64,000 nt of DNA from Hyphomicrobiales bacterium (GTDB lineage: Bacteria > Pseudomonadota > Alphaproteobacteria > Rhizobiales > CBDCVD01). The position numbers were made by a program, and so were the translations under genes. Position 1 is the first letter of the stretch; each line of letters starts with the position of its first letter. Under the pieces are notes generated by a model, which did not search any database, was not told the origin of the DNA, and saw only the letters and a program-made list of their open reading frames with translations. The stretch is taken from contig OZ245032.1 of NCBI GenBank assembly GCA_965224015.1, positions 939,201 to 1,003,200 of the forward strand, written 5' to 3'. This document shows, in pieces, positions 132-63,639 of the stretch.

Positions 132-234
132 ATACCGGCGGTATTGGCTTTATAGACACGCCGACTGGTGTAGGGCCTTGATAACATAACTCTTTGACGC
201 TAAGCCATGAGTCATTGTTAAGGACCCTTGGTAT
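132..234 (+). repeat. RepA copy (approx 103-bp MITE-like interspersed repeat)
   Basis: ATACCGGCGGTATTGGCTTTATAGACACGCCGACTGG...GTCATTGTTAAGGACCCTTGGTAT, near-identical to 9 other copies in the window. Sits between tuf and rpsJ. Confidence 0.9.
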
Positions 235-323
235 TAGGCGCTCCCCTCTTGCGTTCCTCAAAACATCATCAGGAAGCCGCACCCGGGCCGCCCCATGACG
301 ACGCAATATCCACATCGGCACAT

Positions 324-378
324 GCTGGCATTCAGATCACAAACGCTGGCATCCAGATCAGCAAATGCCGGCTGCAAC
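324..378. repeat. Tandem repeat, approx 21-bp unit x2.5
   Basis: GCTGGCATTCAGATCACAAAC / GCTGGCATCCAGATCAGCAAAT / GCCGGCTGCAAC, contiguous. Confidence 0.8.
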
Positions 379-412
379 GCCTTCCGATCATCCAAAGCCC
401 ATAACGCTGGTA

Positions 413-1603
413 TTACTCGATAATGGTGGCGACGACGCCGGCACCTACCGTGCGCCCGCCCTCACGAATGGCAAAGCGCAGCTTCTCTTCCATGGCGATC
501 GGCACTATCAGCTCAACCTCCATCTCGCAATTGTCCCCGGGCATCACCATCTCCGTTCCCTCGGAAAGGCTCACAACACCCGTCACATCGGTGGTGCGAA
601 AATAAAACTGCGGACGGTAATTGGTGAAAAACGGCGTGTGACGACCCCCCTCGTCCTTGGTCAGAATATAGGCCTCCGCCTTGAACTTCGTATGCGGCGT
701 CACGGAACCCGGCTTACACAAAACCTGACCACGCTCAATCCCATCCCGCTCAACACCGCGCAGCAAACACCCGACATTGTCCCCAGCCTCGCCTTGATCC
801 AGAAGCTTGCGGAACATCTCAACCCCCGTCACCGTCGTCTTGCCGGTATTGCGTATGCCAACAATCTCAACTTCCTCACCAACGTTCACAATCCCCCGCT
901 CAATGCGCCCCGTGGCCACCGTGCCACGGCCGGAGATCGAAAAAACATCCTCAACAGGCATCAAAAACGGCTGATCTTTCGGGCGCTCAGGCTGCGGGAT
1001 ATATTCATCAACCGCCGCCATCAATTCAACAATCTTCTCTTTGCCAATCGCATCATCACGACCCTCAAGAGCCGCCAAAGCCGAACCGGTCACAATCGGA
1101 ATGTCATCGCCGGGAAAATCATAAGACGACAAAAGCTCGCGCACTTCCAATTCAACAATCTCCAACAACTCCGCATCGTCAACCTGGTCCGACTTGTTCA
1201 AAAATACAACAAGCGCCGGAACACCAACCTGGCGCGCCAACAATATATGCTCCCGGGTCTGGGGCATCGGGCCATCCGCCGCCGAGACCACCAGAATGGC
1301 CCCATCCATCTGCGCTGCACCGGTGATCATGTTCTTGACATAATCCGCATGGCCAGGACAGTCCACATGGGCGTAGTGGCGGTTCTCCGTCTCGTACTCC
1401 ACATGCGCCGTCGAAATGGTAATGCCGCGCTCGCGCTCCTCAGGCGCCTTGTCAATGTCTTCAAACGCCGTCGCCGTCGCCCCGCCAACTTCCGCCAAAA
1501 CCTTCGTAATCGCAGCCGTCAGCGTCGTCTTGCCATGATCAACATGACCTATCGTCCCGATATTCACATGCGGCTTGTTGCGCTCAAACTTTTCCTTCGC
1601 CAT
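413..1603 (-). CDS. tuf: Elongation factor Tu
   Basis: 396-aa ORF with [18 protein letters not shown] and NKSD GTPase motifs, full-length EF-Tu. Confidence 0.98.
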
Positions 1604-1635
1604 TGACCTCGCTCCTTTTGACCTCGCTCCTCTTG
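1604..1635. repeat. Tandem duplication (15-16 bp x2) of the tuf ribosome-binding region
   Basis: On the tuf strand: CAAGAGGAGCGAGGTCA AAAGGAGCGAGGTCA ATG. The AGGAGCGAGGTCA block occurs twice directly upstream of the start codon. Confidence 0.85.
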
Positions 1636-1667
1636 CGAAATGGATCCCCGATCCTGCTCTTCATCAT

Positions 1668-1724
1668 CATTTGTTTACGTCTGAATCATCTGTTTACGTC
1701 TGAATCATTTGTTTACATCTGAAC
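1668..1724. repeat. Tandem repeat, 19-bp unit x3
   Basis: CATTTGTTTACGTCTGAAT / CATCTGTTTACGTCTGAAT / CATTTGTTTACATCTGAAC. Confidence 0.9.
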
Positions 1725-1929
1725 CCGTCGGTGTTCGTCAGTCAGGGCCTTACCCTTAACCCTTACACCCATCGCCCCAGCACCTGAAACCCGAGGTTCC
1801 GTTCACCCGCGCACATCGCCTGCGCACGTCGCCCGCGCCCTCTTGAAATCGGCACCTTACAGCCGGTCCTGGCACCAACACAGCTTTTCTCTCAACACAT
1901 GCCCCTACCTTTTCAATACCAGCATCCCA

Positions 1930-4005
1930 CTATGCAAACTTGGCCTGAATGGCCTCGGCTTCTGCCTGTGGCACCTGCTGATAATGATCAAACTGCATGG
2001 TAAACTGGGCCCGCCCCTGACTCATGGAGCGCAGGTTACTCACATAACCAAACATGTTGGCAAGCGGCACCATCGCATTCACGACTGTGGCAACGCCGCG
2101 CGACTCGGTTCCCTGAATTTGCCCCCGGCGGGAATTCAGATCACCAATAATATCGCCCATATAGTCCTCAGGGGTAACAACCTCAACCTTCATGATGGGC
2201 TCCAGCAACTTGGGTGCAGCCTTGCGCGCCCCTTCCCGAAAGGCCGCCCGCGAGGCGATTTCAAAAGCCAACACGCTCGAATCCACATCGTGATAGGCGC
2301 CATCCAGAAGCGTTACCTTGGTATCCACAAGAGGAAAGCCGGCGATAACCCCTGTTGACAAAACACTGTTGACGCCCTTCTCAACGCCAGGAATATATTC
2401 CTTGGGCACATTGCCGCCGGTAATCTTGCTCTCAAATGCATGCCCCGTTCCCTGCTCATTGGGCTCGATCAAAAGCTTGACACGGGCAAATTGCCCGGCA
2501 CCGCCGGACTGTTTTTTGTGGGTATAATCAATCTCTTCAGCGCGGGTGACGGTTTCCCGGTAGGCGACCTGGGGATTGCCGATATTGGCTTCGACCTTAA
2601 ATTCACGCTTCATCCGGTCGACAATGATATCAAGGTGCAATTCGCCCATGCCGGCGATGATGGTCTGGCCGGTCTCATTATCGGACTTGACGCGAAAACT
2701 CGGATCCTCTTGCGCCAAACGGTGCAGAGCGGAGCCCATTTTTTCCTGATCACCCTTGGTTTTTGGCTCAACGGTGATCTCGATCACAGGGTCAGGAAAC
2801 TCCATGCGCTCAAGAATAACCTGGTGATCCGGCGCGCACAGGGTATCACCGGTCGTCGTTTCCTTCAGCCCGGCAATGGCAACGATGTCTCCCGCGTGCG
2901 CCAGCTTGATATCCTCCCGGTGATTGGAGTGCATTAAAAGCATACGGCCGACGCGTTCACGCCGGCCTTTTACACTATTAACAACTGTGGAACCGCTCTC
3001 CAGGGTGCCGGAATAAATACGCGCAAAGGTGAGCGAACCGACAAACGGGTCATTCATCACCTTAAAGGCCAGCATGGCGAGAGGCACATCGTCACTGGCC
3101 TGGCGGGTGACATCCTCCTCGCTCTTGACGTCAATGCCCTTTACGGCGGGAATATCAACCGGGCTTGGCAAATAATCGACAACCGCATCTAGAAGCGGCT
3201 GTACACCTTTGTTTTTGAAAGCCGTTCCACACAGAACGGGAACAAAAGTATTATTGATTGTTCCCATGCGGATAAGCTGTGCAAGAGCATCCCCGCAGGG
3301 CTCCTCTCCCTCCAGATAGGCTTCCATGGCCCCCTCATGGACCTCAACGGCCGCCTCCACCATGGCCTCACGCGCCCTGGTCGCCGCATCAACCATGTCG
3401 GCAGGAATATCCTGCTCATGAAACGTTGCGCCTAAGCTTTCGTTATCCCAGATGATTGCTTTCATTTTGATGAGATCAATTACGCCGGCAAATTTCGATT
3501 CGGCCCCAATCGGCAACTGAATCACCAGCGGATTGGCACCAAGCCGGGTCCTTATCATCTCAACTGATTTATCAAAGTCAGCGCCCAACTTATCCATTTT
3601 ATTGACAAATATCATGCGTGGCACGTTGTATTTGTCTGCCTGGCGCCAAACTGTTTCCGTTTGCGGCTCAACCCCGGCGTTGGCATCAAGAAGTGCAACA
3701 GCCCCATCAAGCACCCGCAACGAACGCTCCACTTCAATGGTAAAATCCACATGCCCGGGGGTATCGATGATGTTCAGGCGCTTGCCTTTCCAAAAGCAGG
3801 TGGTTGCGGCCGAGGTGATGGTAATACCCCGTTCCTGCTCCTGCTCCATCCAGTCCATGGTGGCGGCGCCATCGTGAACTTCGCCAATCTTGTGGCTTTT
3901 GCCCGTGTAGTAAAGGATCCGCTCGGTCGTGGTGGTCTTGCCGGCATCAATATGGGCCATGATGCCAAAGTTCCGATAATCCTCAATCTTGTACGCTCGC
4001 GCCAT
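1930..4005 (-). CDS. fusA: Elongation factor G
   Basis: [17 protein letters not shown] and NKMD motifs. Start moved from the ORF-track Met (4026) to Met8, giving the canonical [26 protein letters not shown]-terminus. Confidence 0.97.
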
Positions 4006-4077
4006 AACCAATCTCGTTAATACCATCCAAATAAATTCAGGCCGGGAACACCAACTTGCACCCGACCCCTGATAGCC

Positions 4078-4548: not shown

Positions 4549-4603
4549 GGTTTTGGTTCCGCGATTTGCTTCCGCTCCTGGCGCCGGCAGCGCTTCCGAT
4601 TGA

Positions 4604-4975
4604 CTATTTTGGCCGCTTGGCGCCGTATTTGGATCGGCGCTGGCGTCGATCTTTTACACCGTGCGTATCAAGAACACCGCGTAAAACGTGATAGCGAACC
4701 CCAGGCAGGTCCCGCACCCTACCGCCTCGTATCAGAACAACGGCGTGCTCTTGCAGGTTGTGCCCCTCACCGGGGATGTAACTTATAACCTCACGCCCAT
4801 TGGTCAAGCGAACCTTGGCCACTTTACGAAGGGCAGAGTTTGGCTTTTTGGGTGTCGTGGTATAGACCCGGGTGCAAACCCCTTTCTTTTGCGGGTTTGC
4901 CTCCATGGCCGGCACTTTCGAGCGCTTGACCTTCGATTGCCGCGGCTTGCGGATCAGTTGATTGATCGTTGGCAT
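4604..4975 (-). CDS. rpsL: 30S ribosomal protein S12
   Basis: 123 aa, [12 protein letters not shown]...[11 protein letters not shown]...GVRYH. Confidence 0.97.
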
Positions 4976-4997
4976 CCTAAACTCTTATTCCTCGCAC

Positions 4998-5046
4998 CCT
5001 AACACGTTCCTTGCAGCCTAACACGTTCCTTGCAGCCTAACACGCA
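4998..5046. repeat. Tandem repeat, 19-bp unit x2.6, just upstream of rpsL
   Basis: CCTAACACGTTCCTTGCAG x2, then CCTAACACGCA. Confidence 0.9.
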
Positions 5047-5526
5047 TTTCGCTGCGCCCTTGCCCTGAACCCACCCCCATGCGCTTTAGCAACCCCGGCA
5101 ACTCAAGCCGCCACGCCAACCTTGATAACCGCAAGCCCGACGGCTCGACCGCCACGTCTTTCCCGTAACCCAACACGCAGCATCCGCTTGCACAAATACG
5201 CCGTTTCCAGTTCCCGCGCCAACGGCAGCGCCAAACTGTAATTGAACACCACCTCGCGTTACAACAAACGCTGTAACACCGATCGCGCATCCGCATGTTG
5301 CCTGTATTGTCGTTGGTAGCGTTTAGAGATACGTGGTTTCGTGTGCATTTAACGGGGCGCACGAATGGGCGAACTCTACGGCCTACCCGAGAATCGCCTT
5401 GGGTTCTAGCGCTAAAAGACAGGCATCGTCAAGCAATTTCGCGCTCTCGCCTTAATTTTTTGCCAATTGCGTGCAACTTTAATGGCGTTCGCGGATAATT
5501 GGCGGCAATTGCGGTCTGAATTCTCT

Positions 5527-5580
5527 ATGTCAGTGCAAAATGTCAGTGCAAAATGTCAGTACAAAATGTCAGTGCAAAAT
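5527..5580. repeat. Tandem repeat, 13-bp unit x4
   Basis: ATGTCAGTGCAAA x4 (third unit ATGTCAGTACAAA). Confidence 0.9.
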
Positions 5581-5603
5581 TGCTTGCCTGATCCCGACGG
5601 GTT

Positions 5604-5705
5604 ATACCAGCGGTATTGGCTTTATATACACGCCGACTGGTGTACTGCCTTGATAACACACTTACTTGACGCTAAGCCATGAGTCATTGTTAAGGCCCCT
5701 TGGTA
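5604..5705 (+). repeat. RepA copy
   Basis: ATACCAGCGGTATTGGCTTTATATACACGCCGACTGG...TTGTTAAGGCCCCTTGGTA. Its 3' end is 36 bp from the start codon of the next gene. Confidence 0.9.
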
Positions 5706-5740
5706 GAAATTGATTTCCATATAAATAGGAACTTCGCATT

Positions 5741-6250
5741 ATGTCAGATTTCGCTCAACCGCAAGAAAAAGCAGGCCTCACGCGGGGCAACCGCACACGC
5801 ATCCTGGCCATGCTCGTCGTGGCCATTGTGATGACCATGGGGGCCGTAATTTACGGTTCTCTCGCGCACGCCGGCGCGGTCTACTCCACCGGCGGCAAGG
5901 CGATCGGCGGCTATGACCCGGTGGCTTACTTCACCCACGGCAAGCCCGTGCGTGGGCAAGCGGAGCATGCTTTTTCCTGGAAAGGAACCACCTGGCATTT
6001 CTCCAGCCAGGAAAACCGCGATGCCTTCGCAGCCAGTCCGACCCGATACGCCCCACGATATGGGGGGTACTGCGCCTATGCGGCCTCTCAGAACTACGTT
6101 TACCGCACCGATCCTCATGCCTGGACTATCGTGGACGACAGGCTTTACTTGAACGCAAACAAGAGTGTCCGCGCCACCTGGAGCCAGGATATCCCCGGCC
6201 ACATCGCCGCCGCAGACAAGAACTGGCCGGCCCTGGAAAAAGGTTTGTGA
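5741..6250 (+). CDS. YHS-domain protein (Cys form of the YHS-domain (seleno)protein family), membrane-anchored
   Basis: 169 aa with an N-terminal TM segment, then GGYDPVAYF...WKGTTWHFSSQENRDAFAASPTRYAPRYGGYCAYAAS...DPHAWTIVDDRLYLN. Confidence 0.8.
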   Translation: MSDFAQPQEKAGLTRGNRTRILAMLVVAIVMTMGAVIYGSLAHAGAVYSTGGKAIGGYDPVAYFTHGKPVRGQAEHAFSWKGTTWHFSSQENRDAFAASPTRYAPRYGGYCAYAASQNYVYRTDPHAWTIVDDRLYLNANKSVRATWSQDIPGHIAAADKNWPALEKGL

Positions 6251-6405
6251 GCTGCAAAATCAGCGCATTTTCCAATAAATTGTTCGGCCCGTCCGTGCGT
6301 TTCTTTGCCTGTGCAGATGACAAACCCTGCAGTCACGATCATCGCCCCGACCTGGTTCGGGTGAACCTTACGGGCACTGCGATCTCCTGCATCCATCCGG
6401 TCACC

Positions 6406-6432
6406 GGGAAACGTCTGTTTGCGGCCTGGCCC
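6406..6432 (+). repeat. RepC 5'-end fragment
   Basis: GGGAAACGTCTGTTTGCGGCCTGGCCC, compare GGGAAACGTCTATTTGTGGCCTGCCC at 14968. Confidence 0.6.
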
Positions 6433-6436
6433 TCGC

Positions 6437-6472: not shown

Positions 6473-6767
6473 ATAATAAACACAGGCATCGTGGGGGGCA
6501 TTAACAACGCCTGCATACAGTCATGAATGAACTCACAAATATTTGATTCGTGAGTAGTTTCAATTCATACCTGTTGTTTAGCAAAGTCTTTATGAACCCA
6601 ACCCGAAAGGACTATTCATCTTAGGTTCATAAAAATTTCCCTTACGTAATCATTAAAATTTTCCGAATTCATAAGAAATATCAATAGGAAAAAACTATAA
6701 TTGAAGATTGCACTTTAGGCAAAAATAGCCTTAACACACACATTGGTCCTTAAACAAAATTATACCG

Positions 6768-6869
6768 CGGGGCCTTGCGTTTAACTCCTGGCCCCCCCAG
6801 GGTTACCCTTTCATGGGGGACCCAAGCCCCGGGGAGAGCGGGCCAGATCGCAAATAAACGTTTCCAGCT
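6768..6869 (-). repeat. RepC copy (long form, reverse orientation)
   Basis: The reverse complement begins AGCTGGAAACGTTTATTTGCGATCTGGCC and ends ...GGCCAGGAGTTAAACGCAAGGCCCC. Lies about 20 bp downstream of the pssA stop. Confidence 0.7.
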
Positions 6870-6888
6870 AACATCGAACCCGCGTCGC

Positions 6889-7722: not shown

Positions 7723-7725
7723 AAC

Positions 7726-8445: not shown

Positions 8446-8592
8446 AGGCCGGGCTCAGGTGTTGTTGATTGAGAATTGATGATCGCGCATCAAGCACGCC
8501 CCTGTCTACCACACGTTGGGCTGGAAAAACTACTGGTATGCTCCGCGGCGTTCGCATATAGCTAAATGACTTTATTCTGATACAGTCATTTA

Positions 8593-8632
8593 GAGCGTAT
8601 CAGGTTTTAATAGAACCATTCTGACGGAGCGA
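8593..8632 (+). repeat. RepB short form (approx 40 bp)
   Basis: GAGCGTATCAGGTTTTAATAGAACCATTCTGACGGAGCGA. Preceded by a 10-bp inverted repeat, CTAAATGACT (8562-8571) / AGTCATTTAG (8584-8593). Confidence 0.8.
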
Positions 8633-8706
8633 TTTTGCGCCAATATGGGCCTTAAGTCTCGCAGGATATAGGGGGGCTATTTGCAAGAGGCTTAAGGTCC
8701 ATATGA

Positions 8707-8938
8707 GATCAGCATGGCGTTAGCTTTACCCATTTTGCCAGGGGCAAAGCTAACGCCATAAAGCTGATCGCCCTCTAAATCTATAGCAAAAGCGTCCCTT
8801 CGGGTTTCCGTTTGGCGCAACGCCCACGCCCAAGCCGCTCTCGAGAGATGGATAAACATCGCTCTTCGATCGCCTTGAGCTTGGGAATCGCCTCGCCAAT
8901 CGAGAAACAGAATTGATTCTATTAAAACCTGACACGCT
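8707..8938 (-). repeat. RepB full-length copy (hairpin module + core + left end)
   Basis: The plus strand shows GATCAGCATGGCGTTAGCTTT...AAAGCTAACGCCATAAAGCTGATC (long hairpin), then CTCTAAATCTATAGCAAAAGCG...CCTGACACGCTC. Over 90% alike by eye to 15674-15906 and 12449-12607. Confidence 0.9.
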
Positions 8939-8971
8939 CTAGCTATATGCTTTTATTATCGCTCGGCTTTT

Positions 8972-12411: not shown

Positions 12412-12448
12412 CTCATCATCTTGTTCCTGTGCTCTCAGATAGCCGCTA

Positions 12449-12607
12449 GAGTGTGTCAGGTTTTAATAGAACCCATTCTGTTTCTCGATTGGCGAGGCGA
12501 TACCCAAGTTCAAGGCGATCGAAGAGCGATGTTTATCCATCTCTCAAGAGCGCCTTGGGCGTGGGCGTTGCGCCAATCGGAAACCCGAAGGGGCGCTTTT
12601 GCTATAG
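12449..12607 (+). repeat. RepB copy lacking the long-hairpin module
   Basis: GAGTGTGTCAGGTTTTAATAGAACCCATTCTGTTTCTCGATTGGCGAGGCGA...GGGGCGCTTTTGCTATAG. Confidence 0.9.
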
Positions 12608-14858: not shown

Positions 14859-14967
14859 TTTGTGCCCATGCTGGTCCCTTGTAGACGATAACCTTACTTA
14901 CCACCCTTGGTACCTTACAATTGTGTACTGCATGTTAAGACCTGCCGCCTGATGTCTCCAGAACAGC

Positions 14968-15096
14968 GGGAAACGTCTATTTGTGGCCTGCCCGATCCGC
15001 CTCCCCTTGCCCCATCACCCCTAAGGCACCATTTTACCCGCGGCCCAAGCCGGGGGTGCGGGCAGGGTGAGGCCGGTCAATAGAGTTGCCCAGCTC
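14968..15096 (+). repeat. RepC copy (long form)
   Basis: Starts GGGAAACGTCTATTTGTGGCCTGCCC and ends GGTGAGGCCGGTCAATAGAGTTGCCCAGCTC. Confidence 0.7.
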
Positions 15097-15342
15097 GATG
15101 TTCCTATACGCATGCTGCCATAGTGCCAATCCCGTATTCATATCCCTTACTCAATGCCATATCCCCGTCGTACCGACATCCAAGGGGTGCGCTGTTAAGG
15201 GTTTAAGTACACGACTTAAGATATAGGCAAGCAAACACCGCATTGCAACGCCTGGCGAGACCGAAACCAGGGCCAATGCCGCGAGGAGAGCGCGTTGCTG
15301 CTGCGAGAGTAATTTCAACGTGGAAGCTTTTGCCATAAAATG

Positions 15343-15444
15343 ATACCAGCGGTATGGGATTTATAGACACGCCGGCTGGGGTGGGGCCTTGATAACACAC
15401 CGGATTGACGCTAATCCATAAGCCCTTGTCAAGGCCTTTGGTAT
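15343..15444 (+). repeat. RepA copy (divergent subfamily)
   Basis: ATACCAGCGGTATGGGATTTATAGACACGCCGGCTGGGGTGGGGCCTTGATAACA...GTCAAGGCCTTTGGTAT. Confidence 0.85.
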
Positions 15445-15476
15445 GAGAGGTACTTAACATCATCCCCCGTGCAGAG

Positions 15477-15674
15477 GTGATCGGATTGAATGTTTTGATT
15501 GTTCTTGTTCCTGCCGCACTGGCACTGGGTGCGCTGGGCTTGCTGGCATTTTTATGGTCTGAGCGTCATGGTCAGTTTGATGATCTGGACGGCGCGGCGT
15601 GGCGCGTTCTTGATGATGACGAACATCCGAGCGACGGTAGAGACGGTAGAGACGTGGATAGGGATGAAAGCTAG
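15477..15674 (+). CDS. ccoS: cbb3-type cytochrome oxidase maturation protein CcoS/FixS
   Basis: 65 aa, LIVLVPAALALGALGLLAFLWSERHGQFDDLDGAAWRVLDDDE matches the CcoS signature (single TM + GQ(F/Y)DDLDG). A TTG at 15486 preceded by AGGTG is an alternative start. Confidence 0.85.
   Translation: MIGLNVLIVLVPAALALGALGLLAFLWSERHGQFDDLDGAAWRVLDDDEHPSDGRDGRDVDRDES
15633..15654. repeat. In-frame 9-bp tandem repeat x2.4 in the ccoS tail
   Basis: GACGGTAGA GACGGTAGA GACG encodes DGRDGRD. Confidence 0.8.
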
Positions 15675-15906
15675 ATCAGCTTGGCGTTAGTTGTACCCAT
15701 TTTGCTATGGGGACACCTAAACGTATAAGGCTGAGCGCCCTCTAAATCTATAGCAAAAGCGCCCCTTCGGGTTTGCGATTGGCGCAACGCCCACGCCCAA
15801 GCCGCTTTTGAGAGATGGACAAGCATCGCTCTTCGATCGCCTTGAACTTGGGGATCGCCTCGCCAATCGAGACACAGAATGGATTCTATTAAAACCTGAC
15901 ACGCTC
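15674..15906 (-). repeat. RepB full-length copy
   Basis: GATCAGCTTGGCGTTAGTTGTACCC...GGGGACACCTAAACGTATAAGGCTGAGC, then CTCTAAATCTATAGCAAAAGCG...CCTGACACGCTC. It begins at the last base of the ccoS stop codon. Confidence 0.9.
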
Positions 15907-16029
15907 TCTAATGCGTCGAGATTGACAAGCCCCTCCAAGCAGGTTACAGCAATGCACAAATTTGCACAAGATGTGACGTGGTGGCCGGCAAGAGAGCCAT
16001 AGGATCGCCAAGCGTCCTTGCAATAGATG

Positions 16030-16116
16030 GCCCAGGTGGCGAAATTGGTAGACGCGCTAGCTTCAGGTGCTAGTGGCCGTATGGTCGTGGAAGTTCGAGT
16101 CTTCTCCTGGGCACCA
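16030..16116 (+). tRNA. tRNA-Leu (anticodon CAG)
   Basis: GCCCAGGTGGCGAAATTGGTAGACGC...: 7-bp acceptor stem GCCCAGG/CCTGGGC, anticodon arm CTAGC-TTCAGGT-GCTAG, long variable arm, TPsiC GTTCGAGTC, encoded CCA. Confidence 0.93.
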
Positions 16117-16148: not shown

Positions 16149-16189
16149 ATATCAGCGATATGGGATTTTTGTACACGCTGACTTGTGGG
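16149..16189 (+). repeat. RepA 5'-half fragment (degenerate)
   Basis: ATATCAGCGATATGGGATTTTTGTACACGCTGACTTGTGGG, compare the 15343 copy. Confidence 0.6.
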
Positions 16190-19060: not shown

Positions 19061-19872
19061 CCGCCCTGTGCCTTCCTGATTGTCGCTTTATCCTCGACGT
19101 CCCGTTTTGCGTTTGCGCCCGTGCCAATTCCCGGGCCGTCGGTCATGCCCGCAAGCACTTCGGCAATGTGGCGTACCTCAATAAGGCGCTCCTCTCGCGC
19201 CAGCTTTCCCGCCATGTTGAGAAGACAACCGAGATCGCCGGCCACCAGCGCATCGGCCTTTGTCTCGGCAATGGAGGCGGTTTTCTCGCTGACAATGGCG
19301 TTGGAAATGTCAGGATATTTGGTACAGAACGTGCCGCCGAACCCGCAACACACTTGCGCATTACGCATTTCACGCAAAGTCAGGCCCTCGACTTTACTGA
19401 GAAGGGCGCGAGGCTGGTCGCGAATACCCAGTTCACGCAGCCCCGCGCAAGAGTCGTGATAGGTCACCGTTTTGGCAAACCGGGTCGCAAAGCGATCAAC
19501 CCCGGCAACATCTGTCAGAAAGCGTGTCAGTTCGTAAGCCCGATCGGAAAATGCCGCCGCGCTCGCAGCCCACTCAGGGTCGTCACGCAACAGATCGGGT
19601 ATGTGAATTTTCAGCATCGCCGCACACGAGCCGGATGGTGCCACCACATAGTCAACATCGGCAAAAGCCTTGACGACCTGACGCGCAAGAGCGATCGCGG
19701 TCTTGCGGTCGCCCGAATTATACGCCGGTTGGCCGCAGCAGGTCTGCGCGCGTGGAACCACGACCTTAAAGCCCGCGTCTTCAATCAACTTCACGCTCGC
19801 CCAACCCACACGGGGGCGAAACAGGTCAACGAGGCACGTGACAAACAGGCCCACAACGGGTTTTGTACTCAT
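19057..19872 (-). CDS. lutA: Lactate utilisation protein A (CCG-domain Fe-S oxidoreductase)
   Basis: Two CCG motifs (QTCCGQPAYNSGD, QVCCGFGGTF). Start set at MSTKPVVGLFVTC because the 14 upstream codons (MTLSHESLLRTLGI) are RepA sequence. Confidence 0.88.
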   Translation of the reverse strand: MSTKPVVGLFVTCLVDLFRPRVGWASVKLIEDAGFKVVVPRAQTCCGQPAYNSGDRKTAIALARQVVKAFADVDYVVAPSGSCAAMLKIHIPDLLRDDPEWAASAAAFSDRAYELTRFLTDVAGVDRFATRFAKTVTYHDSCAGLRELGIRDQPRALLSKVEGLTLREMRNAQVCCGFGGTFCTKYPDISNAIVSEKTASIAETKADALVAGDLGCLLNMAGKLAREERLIEVRHIAEVLAGMTDGPGIGTGANAKRDVEDKATIRKAQGG

Positions 19873-19873
19873 T

Positions 19874-19976
19874 ATACCAAGGGTCCTTAACAATGACTCA
19901 TGGCTTAGCGTCAAAGAGGTATGTTATCAAGGCAGTACACCAGTCGGCGTGTACATAAAGCCAATACCGCTGGTAT
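19874..19976 (-). repeat. RepA copy (reverse orientation)
   Basis: ATACCAAGGGTCCTTAACAATGACTCATGGCTTAGCGTCAAAG...AAGCCAATACCGCTGGTAT. Its 3' end lies 2 bp from the lutA ATG. Confidence 0.9.
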
Positions 19977-20065
19977 TATTCGTCAGGTTCCCGCACGCGA
20001 TTGCTATCGCCCGCCCTGTGCAAGGGCGCTCCCCACATCCTGCAAATACCTGCCCGCGCAAACCG

Positions 20066-20371: not shown

Positions 20372-20488
20372 GGGGTCTGTCCTCTTTGACCGGTTTTGCC
20401 TTGGTTTCGTCAACGTAAATGCTGTTCGTTAAATGAGCCCCTTCCGGGCGCCGTATTGAACAAATGCTTACCACCTATTGTGGGCATT

Positions 20489-20591
20489 ATACCAGCGGTA
20501 TTGGCTTTATAGACACGCTGACTGGTGTACTGCCTTGATAACACACCTCTTTGATGCTAATCCATGAGTCATTGTTAAAGACCCTTGGTAT
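20489..20591 (+). repeat. RepA copy
   Basis: ATACCAGCGGTATTGGCTTTATAGACACGCTGACTGG...TTGTTAAAGACCCTTGGTAT. Confidence 0.9.
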
Positions 20592-20652
20592 TATATCGAA
20601 CGTTGGTGCTACGGCAACGGTTTTCATGCCGGGCCAATGTTTCTTGTCACCT

Positions 20653-20786
20653 GAAAACGTCTATTGACGATCCGACCTGACCAGCCCGCTTTCCCTCCCT
20701 CCCATCCATCCATAGGATACTGCCAATGCGGGGGGCTGAGAGGGCAAGTGGGAAGGGTGATGCCGGTTAACAGAGATGCCCACCTG
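20653..20786 (+). repeat. RepC copy (long form)
   Basis: Starts GAAAACGTCTATTGACGATCCGACC and ends GGTGATGCCGGTTAACAGAGATGCCCACCTG. Confidence 0.75.
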
Positions 20787-23748: not shown

Positions 23749-23765
23749 TATGTCCTCCCCGTCTA

Positions 23766-23901
23766 GATCAGCTTGGCGTTAGTTGCCCCCATTTGCTATG
23801 GGGACAACTAAACGCATAAAGCTGATCGCCCTCTAAATCTATAGCAAAATGCAAAAACAATGCGGGAGCCCCATGATTCCAACTAGGCGCATTTTGCTAT
23901 A
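23766..23901 (-). repeat. RepB variant (long-hairpin module + second hairpin module)
   Basis: GATCAGCTTGGCGTTAGTTGCCCCC...GGGGACAACTAAACGCATAAAGCTGATC, then TATAGCAAAATGC-N37-GCATTTTGCTATA (13-bp perfect arms). Confidence 0.85.
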
Positions 23902-26007: not shown

Positions 26008-26066
26008 ACTTTCAGCGGCTATTCGGCGCCCCGCGATGCCGCCGATAAGCATCTATCTCACATGTG

Positions 26067-26169
26067 ATACCAGCGGTATTGGCTTTATAGACACGCCGAC
26101 TGGTGTACTGCCTTGATAACATAACTCTTTGACGCTAAGCCATGAGTCATTGTTAAAGACCCTTGGTAT
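26067..26169 (+). repeat. RepA copy
   Basis: ATACCAGCGGTATTGGCTTTATAGACACGCCGACTGG...TTGTTAAAGACCCTTGGTAT. It ends 15 nt before the regulator start codon. Confidence 0.9.
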
Positions 26170-26184
26170 GAAAACTGTGCAAAT

Positions 26185-28074: not shown

Positions 28075-28150
28075 CCAGAGCGTGTCAGGTGGGCCTCATT
28101 ATTAATTACCATCACACGCTCTGGCCAGATCGCAAATAGATGTTTCCAGC
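28075..28150 (-). repeat. RepC copy (short form, reverse orientation)
   Basis: The reverse complement starts AGCTGGAAACATCTATTTGCGATCTGGCC. Contains the 11-bp inverted repeat CCAGAGCGTGT...ACACGCTCTGG and ends GAGGCCCACCTG. Confidence 0.7.
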
Positions 28151-28190
28151 TTATACCGCGAATGCGTCCATGACATTGGAGGATATGATC

Positions 28191-29195: not shown

Positions 29196-29212
29196 TTCAT
29201 ATAGCTTTTAGA

Positions 29213-29252
29213 GAGCGTGTCAGGTCTTAATAGAACCATTCTGACGGAGCGA
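29213..29252 (+). repeat. RepB short form
   Basis: GAGCGTGTCAGGTCTTAATAGAACCATTCTGACGGAGCGA. Confidence 0.85.
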
Positions 29253-35654: not shown

Positions 35655-35699
35655 CAGATGGGCATCTCAATTAACGGGCATCTACCTACCCACTCCCCT
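35655..35699 (-). repeat. RepC 3' hairpin module
   Basis: The reverse complement is GGGGAGTGGGTAGGTAGATGCCCGTTAATTGAGATGCCCATCTG. Confidence 0.75.
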
Positions 35700-37463: not shown

Positions 37464-38794
37464 TGCGTGTCATACCGGCTTCCACGACCCCCACTCCTGC
37501 CGTTGTTTTAACCAATGCGCGCCTTATTGACCCGTCTCGCGATATGGACGAGCGGGGCAGTCTGATCATTGCGGATCGGCGTATTGTCGCGTGTGGCGCT
37601 CGCGAAGCAAACAATGGAATTCCGGACGCGGCGCGTGTTTACGATTGCAACGGCGCGGTGGTAGCGCCGGGGCTTATCGATATGCGCGTATTTGTCGGCG
37701 AGCCGGGATTTGAGTATCGCGAGACCCTGGCCAGTGCCAGCGCGGCGGCGGCGGCGGGGGGCGTGACCACGTTTTTGTGCATGCCGGACACGGATCCGGT
37801 GATTGATGATGGCGCCATCGTGGACTTTATCCTTCGCCGCGCCCGGGACACGGCGCGGGTTAAGGTCCTGCCCTGCGCGGCGCTCACCAAGGGATTGGCC
37901 GGACGCCAACTGACCGAACTCGGCCTCTTGCGCGAGGCGGGAGCGGTTGCTTTTTCGCAAGGCCACAAGCCGATCGTCAACGCCGAGATCATGCGTCGCG
38001 GCCTTACCTATGCGCGCGATTTTGGTGCCCTCGTCATGCACCACCCCGAGGATCCGGATTTGGCCGGTGCCGGGGTGATGAACGAAAGCGAAGTGGCCAC
38101 AAGGCTGGGCCTGCCGGGACGCCCGCGACAGGCTGAAATTATCGTTTTGGAGCGCGACATTCGCCTTGTGGACCTCACCGGAGGGCACTATCACGCCGAA
38201 GTGGTGTCGTGCGCGGAGGCTGTCGAGGTGATGGCACGGGCGAGGCAAACCTGTGATCGGGTCACCTGTGGGGTTTCCATCAATAATCTTTGTCTGAACG
38301 AGAACGATATCGGGCCGTACCGAACGTTCTTTAAACTGTCGCCCCCCTTGCGCCATGAAGACGACCGTATGGCCCTTGTTGCCGGACTGGCGGCGGGAAC
38401 TATCGATGTGATCGTCTCCAACCACGACCCGCAGGACGTTGATACCAAGCGCCACCCCTTCGCCGAGGCTGCCGATGGAGCGATCGGGCTCGAAACGCTC
38501 CTGTGTGCGGCCCTGCGCCTGGTACATGCAGGCGACATAGACCTTATGGTCCTTTTGCGGGCCCTTAGTCAGCGTCCGGCGGCGTTGCTCAACCTTGACA
38601 CCGGAACTTTAAAACCGGGCCGTCCCGCAGATGTTGTGGTTTTCGATCCCGACGTACCCTGGACGGTCTCGGAAGAGACGATCCATTCGCGCTCGAAAAA
38701 TACCCCCTTTGAGGATACGCAGATGCAGGGCCGTGTCCTGGCCACTTTCGTTAACGGTGATCTTGTCCACGCCTTGCAGGCCCCATTCAAGTAA
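37463..38794 (+). CDS. Dihydroorotase-like protein (PyrC'-type, probably non-catalytic)
   Basis: 443 aa amidohydrolase fold, overlapping the pyrB stop (TGATG). The metal-binding D-x-H-x-H is replaced by DMRVF, and the usual T-D-H-A-P-H is SNHDPQ. Confidence 0.85.
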   Translation: MRVIPASTTPTPAVVLTNARLIDPSRDMDERGSLIIADRRIVACGAREANNGIPDAARVYDCNGAVVAPGLIDMRVFVGEPGFEYRETLASASAAAAAGGVTTFLCMPDTDPVIDDGAIVDFILRRARDTARVKVLPCAALTKGLAGRQLTELGLLREAGAVAFSQGHKPIVNAEIMRRGLTYARDFGALVMHHPEDPDLAGAGVMNESEVATRLGLPGRPRQAEIIVLERDIRLVDLTGGHYHAEVVSCAEAVEVMARARQTCDRVTCGVSINNLCLNENDIGPYRTFFKLSPPLRHEDDRMALVAGLAAGTIDVIVSNHDPQDVDTKRHPFAEAADGAIGLETLLCAALRLVHAGDIDLMVLLRALSQRPAALLNLDTGTLKPGRPADVVVFDPDVPWTVSEETIHSRSKNTPFEDTQMQGRVLATFVNGDLVHALQAPFK

Positions 38795-38895
38795 TACCAG
38801 CGATATGGGCTTTATGGACACGCCGGCTGGTGTACGGCTTTGATAACACAACGCTTTGACGCTAAGGTATGAGTCCTTGGCAAGGGCCCTTGGTA
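38794..38895 (+). repeat. RepA copy (divergent subfamily), first of a head-to-tail pair
   Basis: ATACCAGCGATATGGGCTTTATGGACACGCCGGCTGGTGTACGGCTTTGATAACA...GGCAAGGGCCCTTGGTA. It starts at the last base of the pyrC' stop codon. Confidence 0.88.
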
Positions 38896-38997
38896 ATACC
38901 AGCGGTATGGGCTTTATGGACACGTCGGCTGGTGTACGGCTTTGATAACACAACGCTTTGGCGCTAAGTCATGAGTCATTGGCAAGGGCCCTCGGTA
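38896..38997 (+). repeat. RepA copy (divergent subfamily), second of the pair
   Basis: ATACCAGCGGTATGGGCTTTATGGACACGTCGGCTGG...GGCAAGGGCCCTCGGTA. Confidence 0.88.
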
Positions 38998-39003
38998 CAA
39001 GCG

Positions 39004-39098
39004 AAACGCATAAAGCTGATCGCCCTCTAAATCTATAGCAAAATGCAAGAAGAATACGCAAAAGCCCCATGATTCCCATGAAACGCATTTTGCTATAG
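39004..39098 (-). repeat. RepB variant (right arm of the long hairpin + second hairpin module)
   Basis: AAACGCATAAAGCTGATCGCCCTCTAAAT, then CTATAGCAAAATGC-N38-GCATTTTGCTATAG (14-bp perfect arms). Confidence 0.85.
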
Positions 39099-39315
39099 CG
39101 AAAACAAAGCGCTGCACCTTCTTGAGCTTTGCTTTCTCATTGTTTCAAATGAGGAAAAGTAAATGGAGCGGAGCGGAGCGAAGCACCTTTCTTCACGATC
39201 AACAAATTCGTCTTGCGGCGCGCACAAGGCGCTTCGCCAGAGCGCACGGGCGAACCGCGGCGCGTTTGGCTCCCGGCGCAGATTAAAACCGTCGTTTTAT
39301 CAGCACGATACACAA

Positions 39316-39349
39316 GTCAGCGTATACAAAACACCAATACTGCTGGTAT
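39316..39349 (-). repeat. RepA 5'-end fragment (reverse)
   Basis: GTCAGCGTATACAAAACACCAATACTGCTGGTAT, compare CAGTCGGCGTGTATATAAAGCCAATACCGCTGGTAT. Confidence 0.6.
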
Positions 39350-39548
39350 AACCTCAATAGGTTGTACTTAAAAACCCGTCGGGGGTACAGATGAATGGCC
39401 CGAACTGGCCTTCCTGGCGGCAGGGCCGCAAGACATGACACGCTTCAGGAACAAGCTGCTGAAAGATCACAGCTGGGGGATACCTGGAAGCCATGAGTTT
39501 TTCAGATCGGCCGGCTCGCCAAGGAACATCGGCCAGGGGATGCGCTGA

Positions 39549-49570: not shown

Positions 49571-49643
49571 GTCTGTAATAGAGCGTATCATGTCTTAATA
49601 GAGCGTATCATGTCTTAATAGAACCATTCTGACGGGCACGCTC
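49571..49643 (+). repeat. RepB short form with internal 20-bp duplication
   Basis: GTCTGTAATAGAGCGTATCAT / GTCTTAATAGAGCGTATCAT / GTCTTAATAGAACCATTCTGACGGGCACGCTC. Confidence 0.8.
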
Positions 49644-56744: not shown

Positions 56745-56826
56745 GTAAAGCCGTTAATGGGCAATGCACAGCGCCCGATTTAGGGTAAAAAACCCGGAAC
56801 CTGCGATGTTGGCTTTTTCCGGCATA

Positions 56827-56929
56827 ATACCAGCGGTATTGGCTTTATAGACACGCCGACTGGTGTACGGCTTTGATAACATGCCTCTTTGACGCTAAGC
56901 CATGAGTCATTGTTAAGGACCCTTGGTAT
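56827..56929 (+). repeat. RepA copy
   Basis: ATACCAGCGGTATTGGCTTTATAGACACGCCGACTGG...TTGTTAAGGACCCTTGGTAT. Confidence 0.9.
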
Positions 56930-56993
56930 AAATACCGGCCCCCTGTTGCAAGCACGGCCTCACTTATCGACCAAAGCGCATCCCGTCACATTT

Positions 56994-57025
56994 ATACCAA
57001 GGGGCTTGGCGTTTGACTCTTGGTA
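56994..57025. repeat. RepA-like mini element (two termini joined)
   Basis: ATACCAAGGGGCTTGGCGTTTGACTCTTGGTAT carries the RepA terminal motif at both ends in inverted orientation. Confidence 0.55.
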
Positions 57026-57032
57026 TGACAGG

Positions 57033-57087
57033 TGAAAACGTCTATTGGGGAGCGGGTAGGTAGATGCCCGTTAATAGAGAGGCTCAG
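57033..57087 (+). repeat. RepC copy (short form: 5' end joined directly to the 3' hairpin module)
   Basis: GAAAACGTCTATTG-GGGAGCGGGTAGGTAGATGCCCGTTAATAGAGAGGCTCAG. Confidence 0.75.
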
Positions 57088-57109
57088 TGAGGCGCGTGGC
57101 GCAAGAGGG

Positions 57110-60138: not shown

Positions 60139-60371
60139 TTACCCTGTCAAATAGAGCCAGACTCAAAGGCTGGCTGGTGATCGTCCCCGCGGTACACCCC
60201 GCAGATATTAAACCACAGTGATCGTAACCATAGTCAAAACGCCGACCCGCATACCAGTCACAATCGTGTATTGTCCCCAGGAACGCGAGGCCTTACGGCA
60301 CATGATACTTGCGTCTTCCCGTTTGCTATTATCGGCTCGGCAGAACGCTTTACGGATTGATAAAATCGCTT

Positions 60372-60387
60372 ATACCAGCGGTATTGG
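60372..60387 (+). repeat. RepA 5'-terminal fragment
   Basis: ATACCAGCGGTATTGG only. Confidence 0.5.
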
Positions 60388-60427
60388 TCGCGCGGGAAAC
60401 ATGATCAAAGCGCGCCAAAAGCAAAAG

Positions 60428-60465
60428 CGCTCCGTCAGAATGGTTCCATAAAACATGACACGTTC
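60428..60465 (-). repeat. RepB short form (reverse)
   Basis: The reverse complement is GAACGTGTCATGTTTTATGGAACCATTCTGACGGAGCG. Confidence 0.75.
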
Positions 60466-60561
60466 TAAATAGGAGCGCAGGTGTGGCGTTTCAAGCGCTT
60501 GCAAAATGCGCCGCCCGGACAGCAGGGGCACCCCGACCCAATATCGAAACCTGAATTCCTG

Positions 60562-61827
60562 CTACGCGCTTGTGCTGACATCATCGGCGCGATCGGCATA
60601 AATATAAAGGGGTTGCGCGTTGCCATCCACCACATCAGCGCCGATGACGACTTCCTCGACGCCGTCCAGCCCTGGGAGATCGAACATGGTATCCAGTAGA
60701 ATCGATTCCATGATGGAGCGCAGGCCGCGCGCACCGGTTTTCCTGTCGATCGCCTTGCGCGAAATGGAGCGCAAAGCCTCCTCATGAAAGGTCAAGGCCA
60801 CATTTTCCATCTCAAAAAGGCGCTGGTATTGCTTGACCAGGGCATTCTTGGGTTCGCCAAGAATGCGTACCAGGGCCTTTTCGTCCAGGTCCTCAAGGGT
60901 CGCGACCACCGGCAGGCGACCGACAAACTCAGGAATCAGACCGAATTTCAGCAAATCCTCCGGCTCGACACGGGCAAACAACTCTCCGGTACGCCGGTCC
61001 TCCGGCGCCATGATCCTGGCGGAAAATCCAATCGAGGTGCTGCGCCCACGATCCGATATGATCTTTTCAAGCCCCGCAAAGGCGCCCCCGCACACAAACA
61101 GGATATTTGTTGTATCAACCTGCAAAAACTCTTGCTGGGGATGTTTGCGCCCTCCCTGAGGCGGCACACTGGCGACCGTACCCTCCATGATTTTCAGCAA
61201 CGCCTGCTGAACCCCCTCGCCGGAGACGTCACGGGTGATCGAAGGATTGTCCGACTTGCGCGAGATCTTATCGACTTCGTCAATATAGACAATGCCTCTT
61301 TGGGCGCGTTCCACATTGTAGTCGGCTGACTGCAGCAGTTTGAGAATGATATTTTCAACATCCTCGCCCACATAGCCTGCCTCTGTCAGGGTCGTGGCGT
61401 CCGCCATGGTAAACGGCACGTCAAGAATGCGCGCAAGGGTCTGGGCCAGAAGTGTCTTACCGCACCCTGTTGGACCGATCAGCAGGATATTCGACTTGGC
61501 CAGCTCTACATCGTTGTTTTTAGCAGCATGGTTGAGGCGTTTGTAGTGGTTGTGGACCGCTACAGAGAGAACCCTCTTGGCCTGCCCCTGACCGATAACA
61601 TAATCGTCGAGAACCGTGTTGATCTCATCTGGCGTCGGAACACCGTCATGTGCCTTGACCAGCGAGGTCTTATTCTCCTCGCGGATAATATCCATGCAAA
61701 GTTCAACACATTCGTCGCAGATAAACACCGTCGGCCCCGCAATCAGCTTGCGAACCTCGTGCTGGCTTTTTCCACAAAACGAACAATACAGTGTGTTTTT
61801 GGAATCACCGCCACTTACTTTGCTCAT
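60562..61827 (-). CDS. clpX: ATP-dependent Clp protease ATP-binding subunit ClpX
   Basis: 421 aa with N-terminal zinc-binding [26 protein letters not shown] and [12 protein letters not shown] Walker A. Confidence 0.97.
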
Positions 61828-61944
61828 GACTCTCGTTCTCCGCTTTAAATTATTGTCCCAAAAACACCCACATCAGTTGTGGTTAGTTTTACGTACAACG
61901 AACATCCTGGATCATCGTCACAACTGACACCAAACGTCCATAAT

Positions 61945-61978
61945 GTTTCCCACTTTCCTGCGTTTCCCACTTTCCTGC
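61945..61978. repeat. Tandem repeat, 17-bp unit x2
   Basis: GTTTCCCACTTTCCTGC x2, in the clpP-clpX spacer. Confidence 0.9.
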
Positions 61979-62295
61979 CTCTGACTGGTTCTCACGCCGC
62001 TTCTCCAAACCGCCCGGTCCGATCGTATTCCACCATGAAACACCGACAACGAAATACAGAACACACAATATGGTATCAGCTTAGTCAATGTCGTCCATAG
62101 CGCAAGGACTGATAGGTAATCGGACCCGATAACCTGAAAGTATAATTACCAAAAGCGGTAAACATTATATACCGGAAGTCCTTGCCGTATTTTGCCATAT
62201 TCAAACACCAGCATTGTCTTCAAACATGCACGAAACATACCGCAACGCATCGGTTGCTTTCGGATGTAAGCCCAAAGACGCCATATTATGCCCAT

Positions 62296-62940
62296 TTAAG
62301 CCGCTTCATCATCATCTTCAGGCGCGCGTTTGTCGACAACATTGTCGATCAGGCCAAAGTCCTTGGCCGCATCCGCGGTCATGAAGTTGTCGCGCTCCAG
62401 CGCCTGCAAAACATCATCATAAGCCTGTCCGGTGTGACGAACGTAAATTTCATTGAGACGTTTTTTAACGTTGGAAATCTCTTTGGCGTGAATTTCAATA
62501 TCCGTGGCCTGCCCCTGAAAGCCCGCTGAGGGCTGATGCACCATGATGCGTGCATTGGGTAGTGCTGAGCGCATGCCCTTTTCCCCACCCGCCAACAGGA
62601 GCGAACCCATGGATGCCGCTTGCCCCACACAAAGGGTCGCAATGGCCGGGCGCACAAACTGCATCGTGTCATAAACCGACAACCCTGACGTTACAACGCC
62701 ACCTGGGGAGTTAATGTACATGAAGATCTCTTTTTTGGGATTTTCCGATTCCAGATACAGCAATTGCGCCACGACAAGTGAGGCCATAGCATCTTCCACA
62801 GGGCCGGTGATAAATATGATACGTTCCTTAAGAAGGCGGGAATAGATATCAAAAGCCCGCTCGCCCCGATTGGTTTGCTCAACAACCATCGGGACCAGGG
62901 TGTTCATGTATATCTCTTGGGTCCGTGCGGAATCAGGCAT
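62296..62940 (-). CDS. clpP: ATP-dependent Clp protease proteolytic subunit
   Basis: [29 protein letters not shown] and [11 protein letters not shown] (catalytic Ser). The first Met at 62940 follows TGAGGAT. Met12 (62907) is an alternative. Confidence 0.96.
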
Positions 62941-63458
62941 GGATATATCCTCAATTGGAAAAAATAATAAGCGCCGGGGTTCCCATACGCGCCCGGCACA
63001 AGGTGTGCATCTCCATTAACCGGCATCACAGGCGACTTTAGCAGAAATGCGGCGTCATCTTCCGGCAAGCCGCCCTATCGAAAAAAGCCGATCTCTCATC
63101 ATCAAATGGTGCCAAATCCGAAGTGAACGGCTCCAACTGCTACCATTGGCGTGTGAATGGTTAATGATCTGTTGATTTGTGCGTCCAAGTGGGGACAAAT
63201 GTCGCCGATTGCAACAATTGAACCCGATTTATTTGTGCCGCTTGTCCGTACCATGTCGCCGATTATACGCCGGCATTTACTCAAGTTTTAGCACACAGGT
63301 TTGTTATTTGTTACACCCTGCGCTGTATCGTCACCGCTACGCCAGGGCAAATGTGTCAGATTTTTCAAGGCCCTGAACCGACAAGTTAAGCATGCGGTTG
63401 CTCGCATACTGTTTTTCGCATGCGCGCAAGGTAATTTATCACCCAGGCCACCACCCTT

Positions 63459-63508
63459 GAGCGTGCCATGTCTGAATAGAAGACCCCATTCTGTTTCTCG
63501 TTTGGCGC
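63459..63508 (+). repeat. RepB 5' fragment (degenerate)
   Basis: GAGCGTGCCATGTCTGAATAGAAGACCCCATTCTGTTTCTCGTTTGGCG, compare GAGTGTGTCAGGTTTTAATAGAACCCATTCTGTTTCTCGATTGGCG. Confidence 0.6.
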
Positions 63509-63536
63509 GCACGAAAGACCGTTTCCATTACTTTTA

Positions 63537-63639
63537 ATACCAAGGGTCCTTAACAATGACTCATGGCTTAGCGTCAAAGAGGTATGTTATCAAGGCAGTA
63601 CACCAGTCGGCGTGTATATAAAGCCAATACCGCTGGTAT
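63537..63639 (-). repeat. RepA copy (reverse orientation)
   Basis: ATACCAAGGGTCCTTAACAATGACTCATGGCTTAGCGTCAAAG...AAGCCAATACCGCTGGTAT. Confidence 0.9.

Follow-up and report, generated by a model that had tools for sequence, protein, structure and literature searches.

We describe here RepA, a family of short non-coding repeats in a stretch of 64,000 nucleotides from a Hyphomicrobiales bacterium (assembly GCA_965224015.1, contig OZ245032.1, positions 939,201 to 1,003,200), hereafter called the window. RepA is a 101-bp element present there in ten full copies, and we hold with good confidence that it is a MITE (miniature inverted-repeat transposable element) mobilised in trans by a DDE transposase encoded elsewhere in the genome. 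The original prediction had proposed a MITE-like element from the letters alone. That reading is now borne out by a 3-bp duplication of the target, inverted termini, the lack of coding capacity, the dispersal of the copies, one insertion seen both filled and empty, and insertion sites that differ between two related genomes.

Exact ends and a duplicated target

The ten full copies listed in the original prediction are all present, at the positions and on the strands that it gave. The same ten were recovered by a repeat finder, by a MAFFT alignment and by an nhmmer profile built from the copies, the last of which returned exactly ten full-length matches in the window (E 5e-37 to 7e-31). A 24-mer taken from the element has nine matches in the window at three mismatches or fewer, compared with none in 100 shuffles. 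In the alignment, similarity begins and ends at one common column in all ten copies, and the sequences on either side are unrelated and unique. Once the alignment is re-registered, the core measures 101 bp and runs TACC...GGTA, with the sequence TACCAGCGG...CCCTTGGTA. The outer A and T of the predicted ATACC...GGTAT belong to the duplicated target rather than to the element.

Immediately outside ATACC...GGTAT, either side of the alignment has a T that never varies, followed by a base that does. The core is therefore bounded by a 3-bp TNA sequence, repeated in direct and not in inverted orientation (TGA/TGA or TAA/TAA, for example). When the window and the related loci described below are taken together, the flanks are identical in nine of 12 complete pairs (TTA five times, TAA twice and TGA twice). 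Two further pairs carry one mismatch, those of copy 38896 in the window (TAA/CAA) and of a copy in a related locus, L001 (CTA/TTA). In 12 of 13 copies, the left and right flanks share the middle base of TNA (P ~7e-7). Because the flanks match in the direct sense, down to this middle base, they constitute a 3-bp target-site duplication made at a TNA target.

The terminal inverted repeats of RepA are imperfect, as had been predicted: TACCAGCGGT and TACCAAGGGT, the second compared as its reverse complement, match at eight of ten positions. Two palindromes noted previously are also present, a perfect 5-3-5 palindrome (ATACC-AGC-GGTAT) at the 5' end and an internal one, ATGAGTCAT. Stop codons occur in five of the six frames and no frame exceeds 33 codons, in agreement with the predicted lack of coding capacity. 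With a GC content of 46.5%, against 55.7% for the window, the element is richer in AT than its host. Prokaryotic MITEs are described as elements shorter than 500 bp whose ends are inverted repeats of about 4-30 bp, flanked by direct repeats when young and located in AT-rich intergenic regions (PMC10969869). RepA fits this definition, since it is small and non-coding, ends in inverted termini, is flanked by a TNA duplication and occurs as dispersed copies that are present in one genome and absent from another.

A filled and an empty site

Direct evidence of insertion comes from the sole close relative that we found, the metagenome-assembled genome (MAG) OZ244974.1 (Hyphomicrobiales bacterium, 3,393,886 bp), of which three loci, L001 to L003, were analyzed (51 kb). 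In L001, a RepA copy of the subfamily called RepA1 below is nested inside a copy of a second repeat, RepB, whereas the RepB copy of the window (8591-8944) is uninterrupted at this point. The filled site of the MAG reads GGCCT-TAA-[101 bp]-TAG-TCTCGC and the empty site of the window GGCCT-TAA-GTCTCGC; the boundaries of the insert are exactly the TACC and GGTA ends.

Other sites are occupied in the window only. The tuf-rpsJ region of the MAG (L003) holds no RepA copy. None is found either at the MAG pyrC stop codon, unlike in the window, a comparison that is only suggestive. That insertion sites differ between the two genomes indicates that copies were acquired after their divergence.

Two subfamilies and their copy numbers

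RepA comprises two subfamilies, RepA1, which corresponds to the window consensus, and RepA2 (TACCAGCGGTATTGGCGTTTTGTACGCGCTGACTTGTGTATCGTGCTGACAAGACAACGG...GGAGTCAAACGCAAAGCCCCTTGGTA). Their overall identity is about 65%, and the likeness is concentrated at the ends: counted by eye on the alignment, identity reaches 83% in the first 41 nt and 100% in the last 11 nt, compared with about 50% in the middle. The terminal inverted repeats of RepA2 match at 11 of 16 positions.

Both subfamilies occur in both genomes, in opposite proportions. In the window, RepA1 is intact, with seven main copies 89-99% identical to each other (mean 94%), and RepA2 is reduced to an 88-nt truncated copy and shorter pieces (at 16149, at 6763 and a 31-bp derivative at 56995). 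In the three MAG loci, where RepA2 is intact, there are one RepA1 copy and eleven RepA2 copies. MAG copies of RepA2 also form head-to-tail arrays with a 99-bp period, of four units in L001 (660-1053) and three units in L002 (17362-17661), joined as CCCTTG-TA-TACC. In bacteria, MITEs are seldom amplified in tandem. The best explanation for these distributions is a recent expansion of RepA1 in the window genome and an expansion of RepA2, tandem arrays included, in its relative.

More than one wave of amplification had been predicted, and in spirit this holds; the true split, however, lies between RepA1 and RepA2 and not where it had been placed. The proposed group joined copy 15343 to the tandem pair 38794/38896. 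The two units of the pair do share 93% identity with each other, and 82-86% with the seven main RepA1 copies, but copy 15343 is only about 80% identical to every other copy, so that the group as proposed is only weakly supported.

RepA reaches a density of about one copy per 6 kb in the window and in its relative alike. We identified 12 full and 2 partial copies of the family in L001-L003; the two MAG loci that were picked by gene and not by repeat total 43 kb and hold 7 full copies. Either genome extrapolates to about 550 copies, a figure that is an extrapolation and not a count.

Sequence and gene order in related genomes

At the amino acid level, the MAG is 75% identical to the window in pyrC, 91% in fusA and 95.5% in tuf. 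Third codon positions are only 45% identical in pyrC, 53% in fusA and 68% in tuf. RepA itself is far better conserved: the MAG RepA1 copy is 92% identical to copy 19874 of the window, and the window RepA2 is 89% identical to MAG RepA2. The next relatives are Tara metagenome scaffolds, with an elongation factor G (EF-G) about 83% identical, and the closest named neighbors by the same protein are Coralliovum, Cohaesibacter and Pseudovibrio (about 80%). A 22-kb locus of a Tara relative (L004) has no match to the RepA pattern and no interspersed repeats.

Little gene order is shared by the window and the MAG. In a comparison with L002, only pyrB-pyrC is syntenic, and the intergenic DNA does not align. 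The Tara relative has the compact canonical arrangement rpoB-rpoC-rpsL-rpsG-fusA-tuf-rpsJ. The near-universal linkage rpoB-rpoC-rpsL is intact there (L004 4275-9413); the rpoC-rpsL linkage is broken in both the window (4975-6250) and the MAG (L003 7800-9300), with different upstream neighbors. The spacing of tuf and rpsJ also varies: a DUF1131 gene lies between them in the MAG (L003 13704-14552), only RepA in the window, and a 79-nt spacer in the Tara relative. One RepA copy, 5604, has mismatched flanks and lies at the rpoC-rpsL break of the window; recombination between copies might plausibly be the cause.

A model for RepA transposition and its alternatives

In the model that we favor, a transposase supplied from elsewhere in the genome would recognize both ends of RepA, excise or copy the element and insert it at a TNA trinucleotide, and the filling-in of staggered 3-nt cuts would leave TNA on both sides. 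The most likely driver would be a transposase of the IS1031 type (insertion sequence (IS) family IS5), as TNA duplication is a signature of the IS1031 group, which prefers TNA and exclusively produces a 3-bp direct repeat (PMC12016507). In this account the family is older than the split between the window genome and the MAG and has remained active in both lineages. Effects on the host are probably incidental; the AT-rich intergenic TNA sites where copies land include the edges of stop and start codons. Copies may also act as recombination substrates. The anatomy of RepA, its duplication, the filled and empty sites and the differing insertion sites of the two genomes are direct observations; movement in trans, the type of transposase and any influence on adjacent genes are inferences.

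Several observations sit poorly with this model. Copy 5604 has flanks that differ at two positions (TTA/GAA), and in L001 the filled site lacks one base of an exact TTA duplication, although TTA/TAA otherwise fits. The inverted repeats of RepA are short as well as imperfect. The original prediction reported no transposase in the window, which holds for every large open reading frame (ORF); likewise, the roughly 51 kb of L001-L003 contain no transposase, and none with matching ends came to light in either. The ends of RepA (TACCAGCGGTATTGG) are unlike the terminal repeat of ISLrh (GAACCTGTCTAGTATCT), the sole IS1031-group repeat compared. Tandem junctions, with one nucleotide between units in the window and none in the MAG arrays, are shorter than two independent insertions predict. 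Finally, an identity of 89-92% over the whole length of RepA between genomes, against 45-68% at third codon positions, suggests that the interior is conserved beyond the needs of transposition alone. This might reflect descent from master copies that are themselves conserved, selective pressure on the interior or transfer across lineages.

A different transposition mechanism might be considered, in which RepA would be an IS630/Tc1-mariner MITE. The duplicated sequence would then be TA, the element would run CCAGCGG...CCTTGG, and the outer T-N-A would reflect a preferred target. TA does adjoin CC...GG directly at both ends of every copy, the neighboring RepB family looks TA-flanked, and MITEs that duplicate TA, among them Correia and RUP, are the type most often met in bacteria. 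A 2-bp duplication, however, cannot explain why the base outside TA agrees between the two flanks of 12 copies out of 13. In addition, the empty RepB site (GAGAC-TTA-AGGCC) departs by 4 nt from the TA model and by 1 nt from the TNA model. We therefore regard TA duplication as extremely improbable. Among other candidates, elements of the IS200/IS605 type, which are associated with palindromes, were ruled out since they leave no duplication, and REP elements because they make none, whereas RepA is a 101-bp unit with TNA duplications. Integron attC sites were ruled out by the absence of R''/R' core motifs and of cassette arrays. An assembly artefact was also ruled out, as the copies differ, their flanks are unique and two independent assemblies contain them.

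Alternatively, RepA may be a repeat with a function for the host: a small structured RNA, a cis-regulatory RNA, a module bound by a protein, or a selected element akin to REP/BIME. A hairpin can be drawn in the 5' 40 nt and is preserved throughout the 21 aligned copies, and the ATACC-AGC-GGTAT palindrome is reminiscent of an operator. A downstream start codon of the same orientation lies no more than 35 nt from the end of three copies, and the 89-92% cross-genome identity is maintained while synonymous sites are saturated. However, a consensus fold revealed no conserved RNA structure. The RNAalifold consensus of 21 copies has an energy of only -5.2 kcal/mol (covariation term, -0.09), a single one of its 12 pairs is compensatory, and the fold is confined to the conserved 5' 40 nt. 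Folds of single copies on both strands are unremarkable (z -0.25 to -2.0). RepA matches no Rfam family at gathering thresholds over the whole window, nor in region 38700-39450 at E values up to 1, and a scan around one copy, 26067, detected no promoter-like or terminator-like site. Copies are found in either orientation and in any position relative to genes, and transposition is shown by the target duplications together with the pair of filled and empty sites. A host function of the family as a whole thus seems very improbable to us; individual copies may have been co-opted later.

The conservation between genomes might also be explained if RepA is a MITE that was recently transferred horizontally, either by itself or through its parent IS. 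RepA1 and RepA2 are 92% and 89% identical across the two genomes, well above third positions of fusA, pyrC and tuf, and no copy occupies a demonstrably orthologous site in both. Yet both subfamilies and RepB are common to the two genomes, so that several transfers would be needed. The degraded RepA2 fragments of the window point to a long residence, and the RepA2 remnants that both genomes carry downstream of pyrC, similarly oriented, may be orthologous. On balance, recent transfer appears improbable. It is likewise doubtful, yet conceivable, that RepA is constrained over all of its 101 bp and not at the ends alone, as would be suggested by an identity of 89-92% at non-orthologous sites, the exact head-to-tail arrays and the abutted start and stop codons. 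RepA would then have its own function, for instance a transcript or a protein-binding module serving its mobility or the host; the same pattern fits repeated exchange between lineages equally well. The MITE mobilised in trans thus remains our preferred reading of RepA.

RepA copies and their neighboring genes

All RepA copies lie between genes, in both orientations relative to their neighbors, in keeping with the prediction that the element is always intergenic; even so, one duplication coincides with a stop codon and another overlaps a start codon. Every large ORF of the window is a housekeeping gene. We identified tuf, fusA, pssA, psd, an htrA-like gene, hflKC, lutABC, pepF, pgi, tgt, queA, pyrBC, pntAB, trpS, murJ, a malic enzyme gene, mutS, grpE, lon and clpP; rpsG, rpsL, glnD and clpX were assigned by position and size alone. 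The density of copies near ribosomal and chaperone genes had been called unusual. We do not find it so in itself, because MITEs settle in any intergenic DNA that tolerates them and the window has at least one other MITE-like family.

Starting from the left of the window, a RepA1 copy at 130..236 (+; core 133-233, flanks TTA/TTA) lies between the stop of tuf (position 413) and the start of rpsJ (about position 47), both genes being on the minus strand. Copy 5604 (5602..5708, +; core 5605-5705), also of RepA1 and the sole copy with non-matching flanks, is located 629 nt upstream of rpsL, in the usual place of rpoC, and 35 nt upstream of a gene for a YHS-domain protein. The diverged RepA1 copy 15343 follows at 15341..15446 (+; core 15344-15443, TGA/TGA).

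Copy 19874 (19872..19978, -; core 19875-19975, TAA/TAA; RepA1) directly adjoins lutA. At the junction, which reads GGTA-TAA-TG, the right TAA overlaps the ATG of lutA and provides its A. The longest ORF for lutA opens at a TTG inside the copy (19857-19914, -), which is an artefact; translation almost certainly begins at the ATG of 19874-19872, and the protein then opens with MSTKPVVGLFVTC. Automatic gene callers could thus mis-start this gene. Two RepA1 copies are found further along the window on the plus strand, one at 20487..20593 (core 20490-20590, TTA/TTA) between a COX4-like gene and pepF, and one, copy 26067, at 26065..26171 (core 26068-26168, TGA/TGA), which ends some 15 nt short of the start codon (ATG, 26185) of a gene of the Crp/Fnr family.

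The head-to-tail RepA1 dimer 38794/38896 spans 38792..39000 (+), with cores at 38795-38895 and 38897-38997 and one base between them (GG-TAA-TACC). Its left TAA (38792-38794) is the stop codon of pyrC, which the dimer keeps through its own duplication, and its right flank is CAA. The last two RepA1 copies are located upstream of grpE, itself on the minus strand (56825..56931, +; core 56828-56928, TAA/TAA), and about 600 nt upstream of clpP (63535..63641, -; core 63538-63638, TTA/TTA).

Four fragments had been listed, all of which exist, and where assignable they are mostly RepA2. The one given at 39316 is in fact the 88-nt, 3'-truncated RepA2 copy (39262..39352, -; element 39262-39349), which has TTA at its 5' flank and supplies the 89% identity to intact MAG RepA2. 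A 41-nt, RepA2-like 5'-end fragment (16149..16189, +) lies downstream of a tRNA gene (Rfam, 16030-16113). The fragment at 56994, described as two joined termini, is exactly this: an internally deleted RepA2 of 31 bp (56992..57028, -; core 56995-57025) in which TACCA is joined to the last 26 nt, flanked by TCA and TAA as read on the minus strand. The fourth is a 16-nt 5' end (TACCAGCGGTATTGGT) after TTA (60370..60388, +; element 60373-60388), with no similarity beyond and too short to be given a subfamily. One fragment had been missed, a RepA2 3' end with an adjoining TTA (6760..6793, -; element 6763-6793).

Other repeats in the window

RepB, a second MITE-like family, measures about 354 bp. 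Its ends are inverted repeats of about 33 bp (AGAGCGTRTCAGGTYTTAATAGAACCATTCTG...CAGAATKGATTCTATTAAAACCTGACACGCTCT), and its flanks seem to be TA/TAG. The window has a full copy (8591-8944) and partial ones at 12445-12607 (-), 15673-15907, 23763-23901 and 38981-39097; the MAG has copies at L001 5779-6053 and 6866-7239, one of which holds the nested RepA1. The terminal repeat of RepB (AGAGCGTGTCAGGTCTTAATAGAACCATTCTGACGGAGCGA) is also found in isolation in the window at 29212-29252, 49580-49640 (two overlapping units), 60421-60467 (-) and 12448-12488. These look like solo ends or very short derivatives.

Two sets of 30-36-nt repeats were observed, one with GGAAACGTCT.TTTG.G at 6402-6431, 14964-14993 and 20648-20677, the other with GGCCAGATCGCAAATA.A.GTTTCCAGC at 6841-6876 and 28123-28158; each looks like the other's reverse complement. 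An inverted pair of 40 nt with 90% complementarity (TGGGCATCTCAATTAACGGGCATCTACCTACCCACTCCCC) is found at 35659-35698 and 57047-57086, 21 kb apart, and may be another dispersed repeat.

Comparison with known elements

No match to RepA was found in Rfam, PLSDB plasmids (by blastn), JGI metagenomes or IMG/VR, so that no described family came to light that would deprive RepA of its novelty. An exact 28-mer is absent from GTDB species genomes, and a degenerate pattern points to MAG OZ244974.1 only, among the matches listed for these genomes. With respect to these collections, RepA is a previously unrecorded MITE family and ordinary selfish DNA.

RepA resembles prokaryotic MITEs such as Correia of Neisseria, enterobacterial ERIC, Chunjie and Nezha in being small, non-coding, AT-rich and intergenic. 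It shares with MITEs its short inverted termini, flanking duplications, many dispersed copies, nested insertions and truncated derivatives. Correia and ERIC duplicate TA, whereas RepA duplicates a 3-bp TNA; the comparison with these two families is by description. RepA further differs from known MITEs in having no predicted stable RNA fold and, in the relative, head-to-tail arrays with a 99-bp period. Its extrapolated number of about 550 copies per genome is within the range reported for MITEs (from 30 to 711 for ERIC and more than 120 for Correia; PMC10969869).

With the IS1031 group (IS1031, ISLrh), RepA shares a TNA preference and a 3-bp direct repeat, which makes it a candidate for membership only. 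IS1031 and IS427-group elements are common in Alphaproteobacteria. No IS1031-group IS was found beside or near any of the copies examined in the window and L001-L003. REP and BIME elements, which are mobilised by RAYT proteins, are also abundant intergenic repeats with palindromes and are sometimes clustered. REP units are imperfect palindromes of 20-40 nt and produce no target duplication. RepA is unlike them in its 101-bp length, TNA duplications and inverted termini, and the window contains no RAYT-like gene.

The nearest described analogues appear to belong to the same order. As summarized in two later articles, Brucella carries 'palindromic' intergenic repeats, Bru-RS1 and Bru-RS2, of 103 and 105-106 bp (Halling and Bricker 1994, via PMC10800456 and PMC3163539). 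According to the same accounts, they act as hot spots where IS711, an element that duplicates TA at YTAR, inserts (PMC10800456, PMC3163539). Likened by description alone and within what these summaries report, the Brucella repeats share with RepA a similar length and an organization into two related subfamilies of many copies.

The general understanding of MITEs is unchanged by RepA. The family provides a clean natural case of high-density amplification of a TNA-targeting MITE in a little-known, uncultured Hyphomicrobiales lineage, and is worth masking or annotating in both genomes. Its two subfamilies fared oppositely in two sister genomes. As gene order is almost wholly lost between these genomes, they could serve to test whether dense MITEs drive rearrangement.

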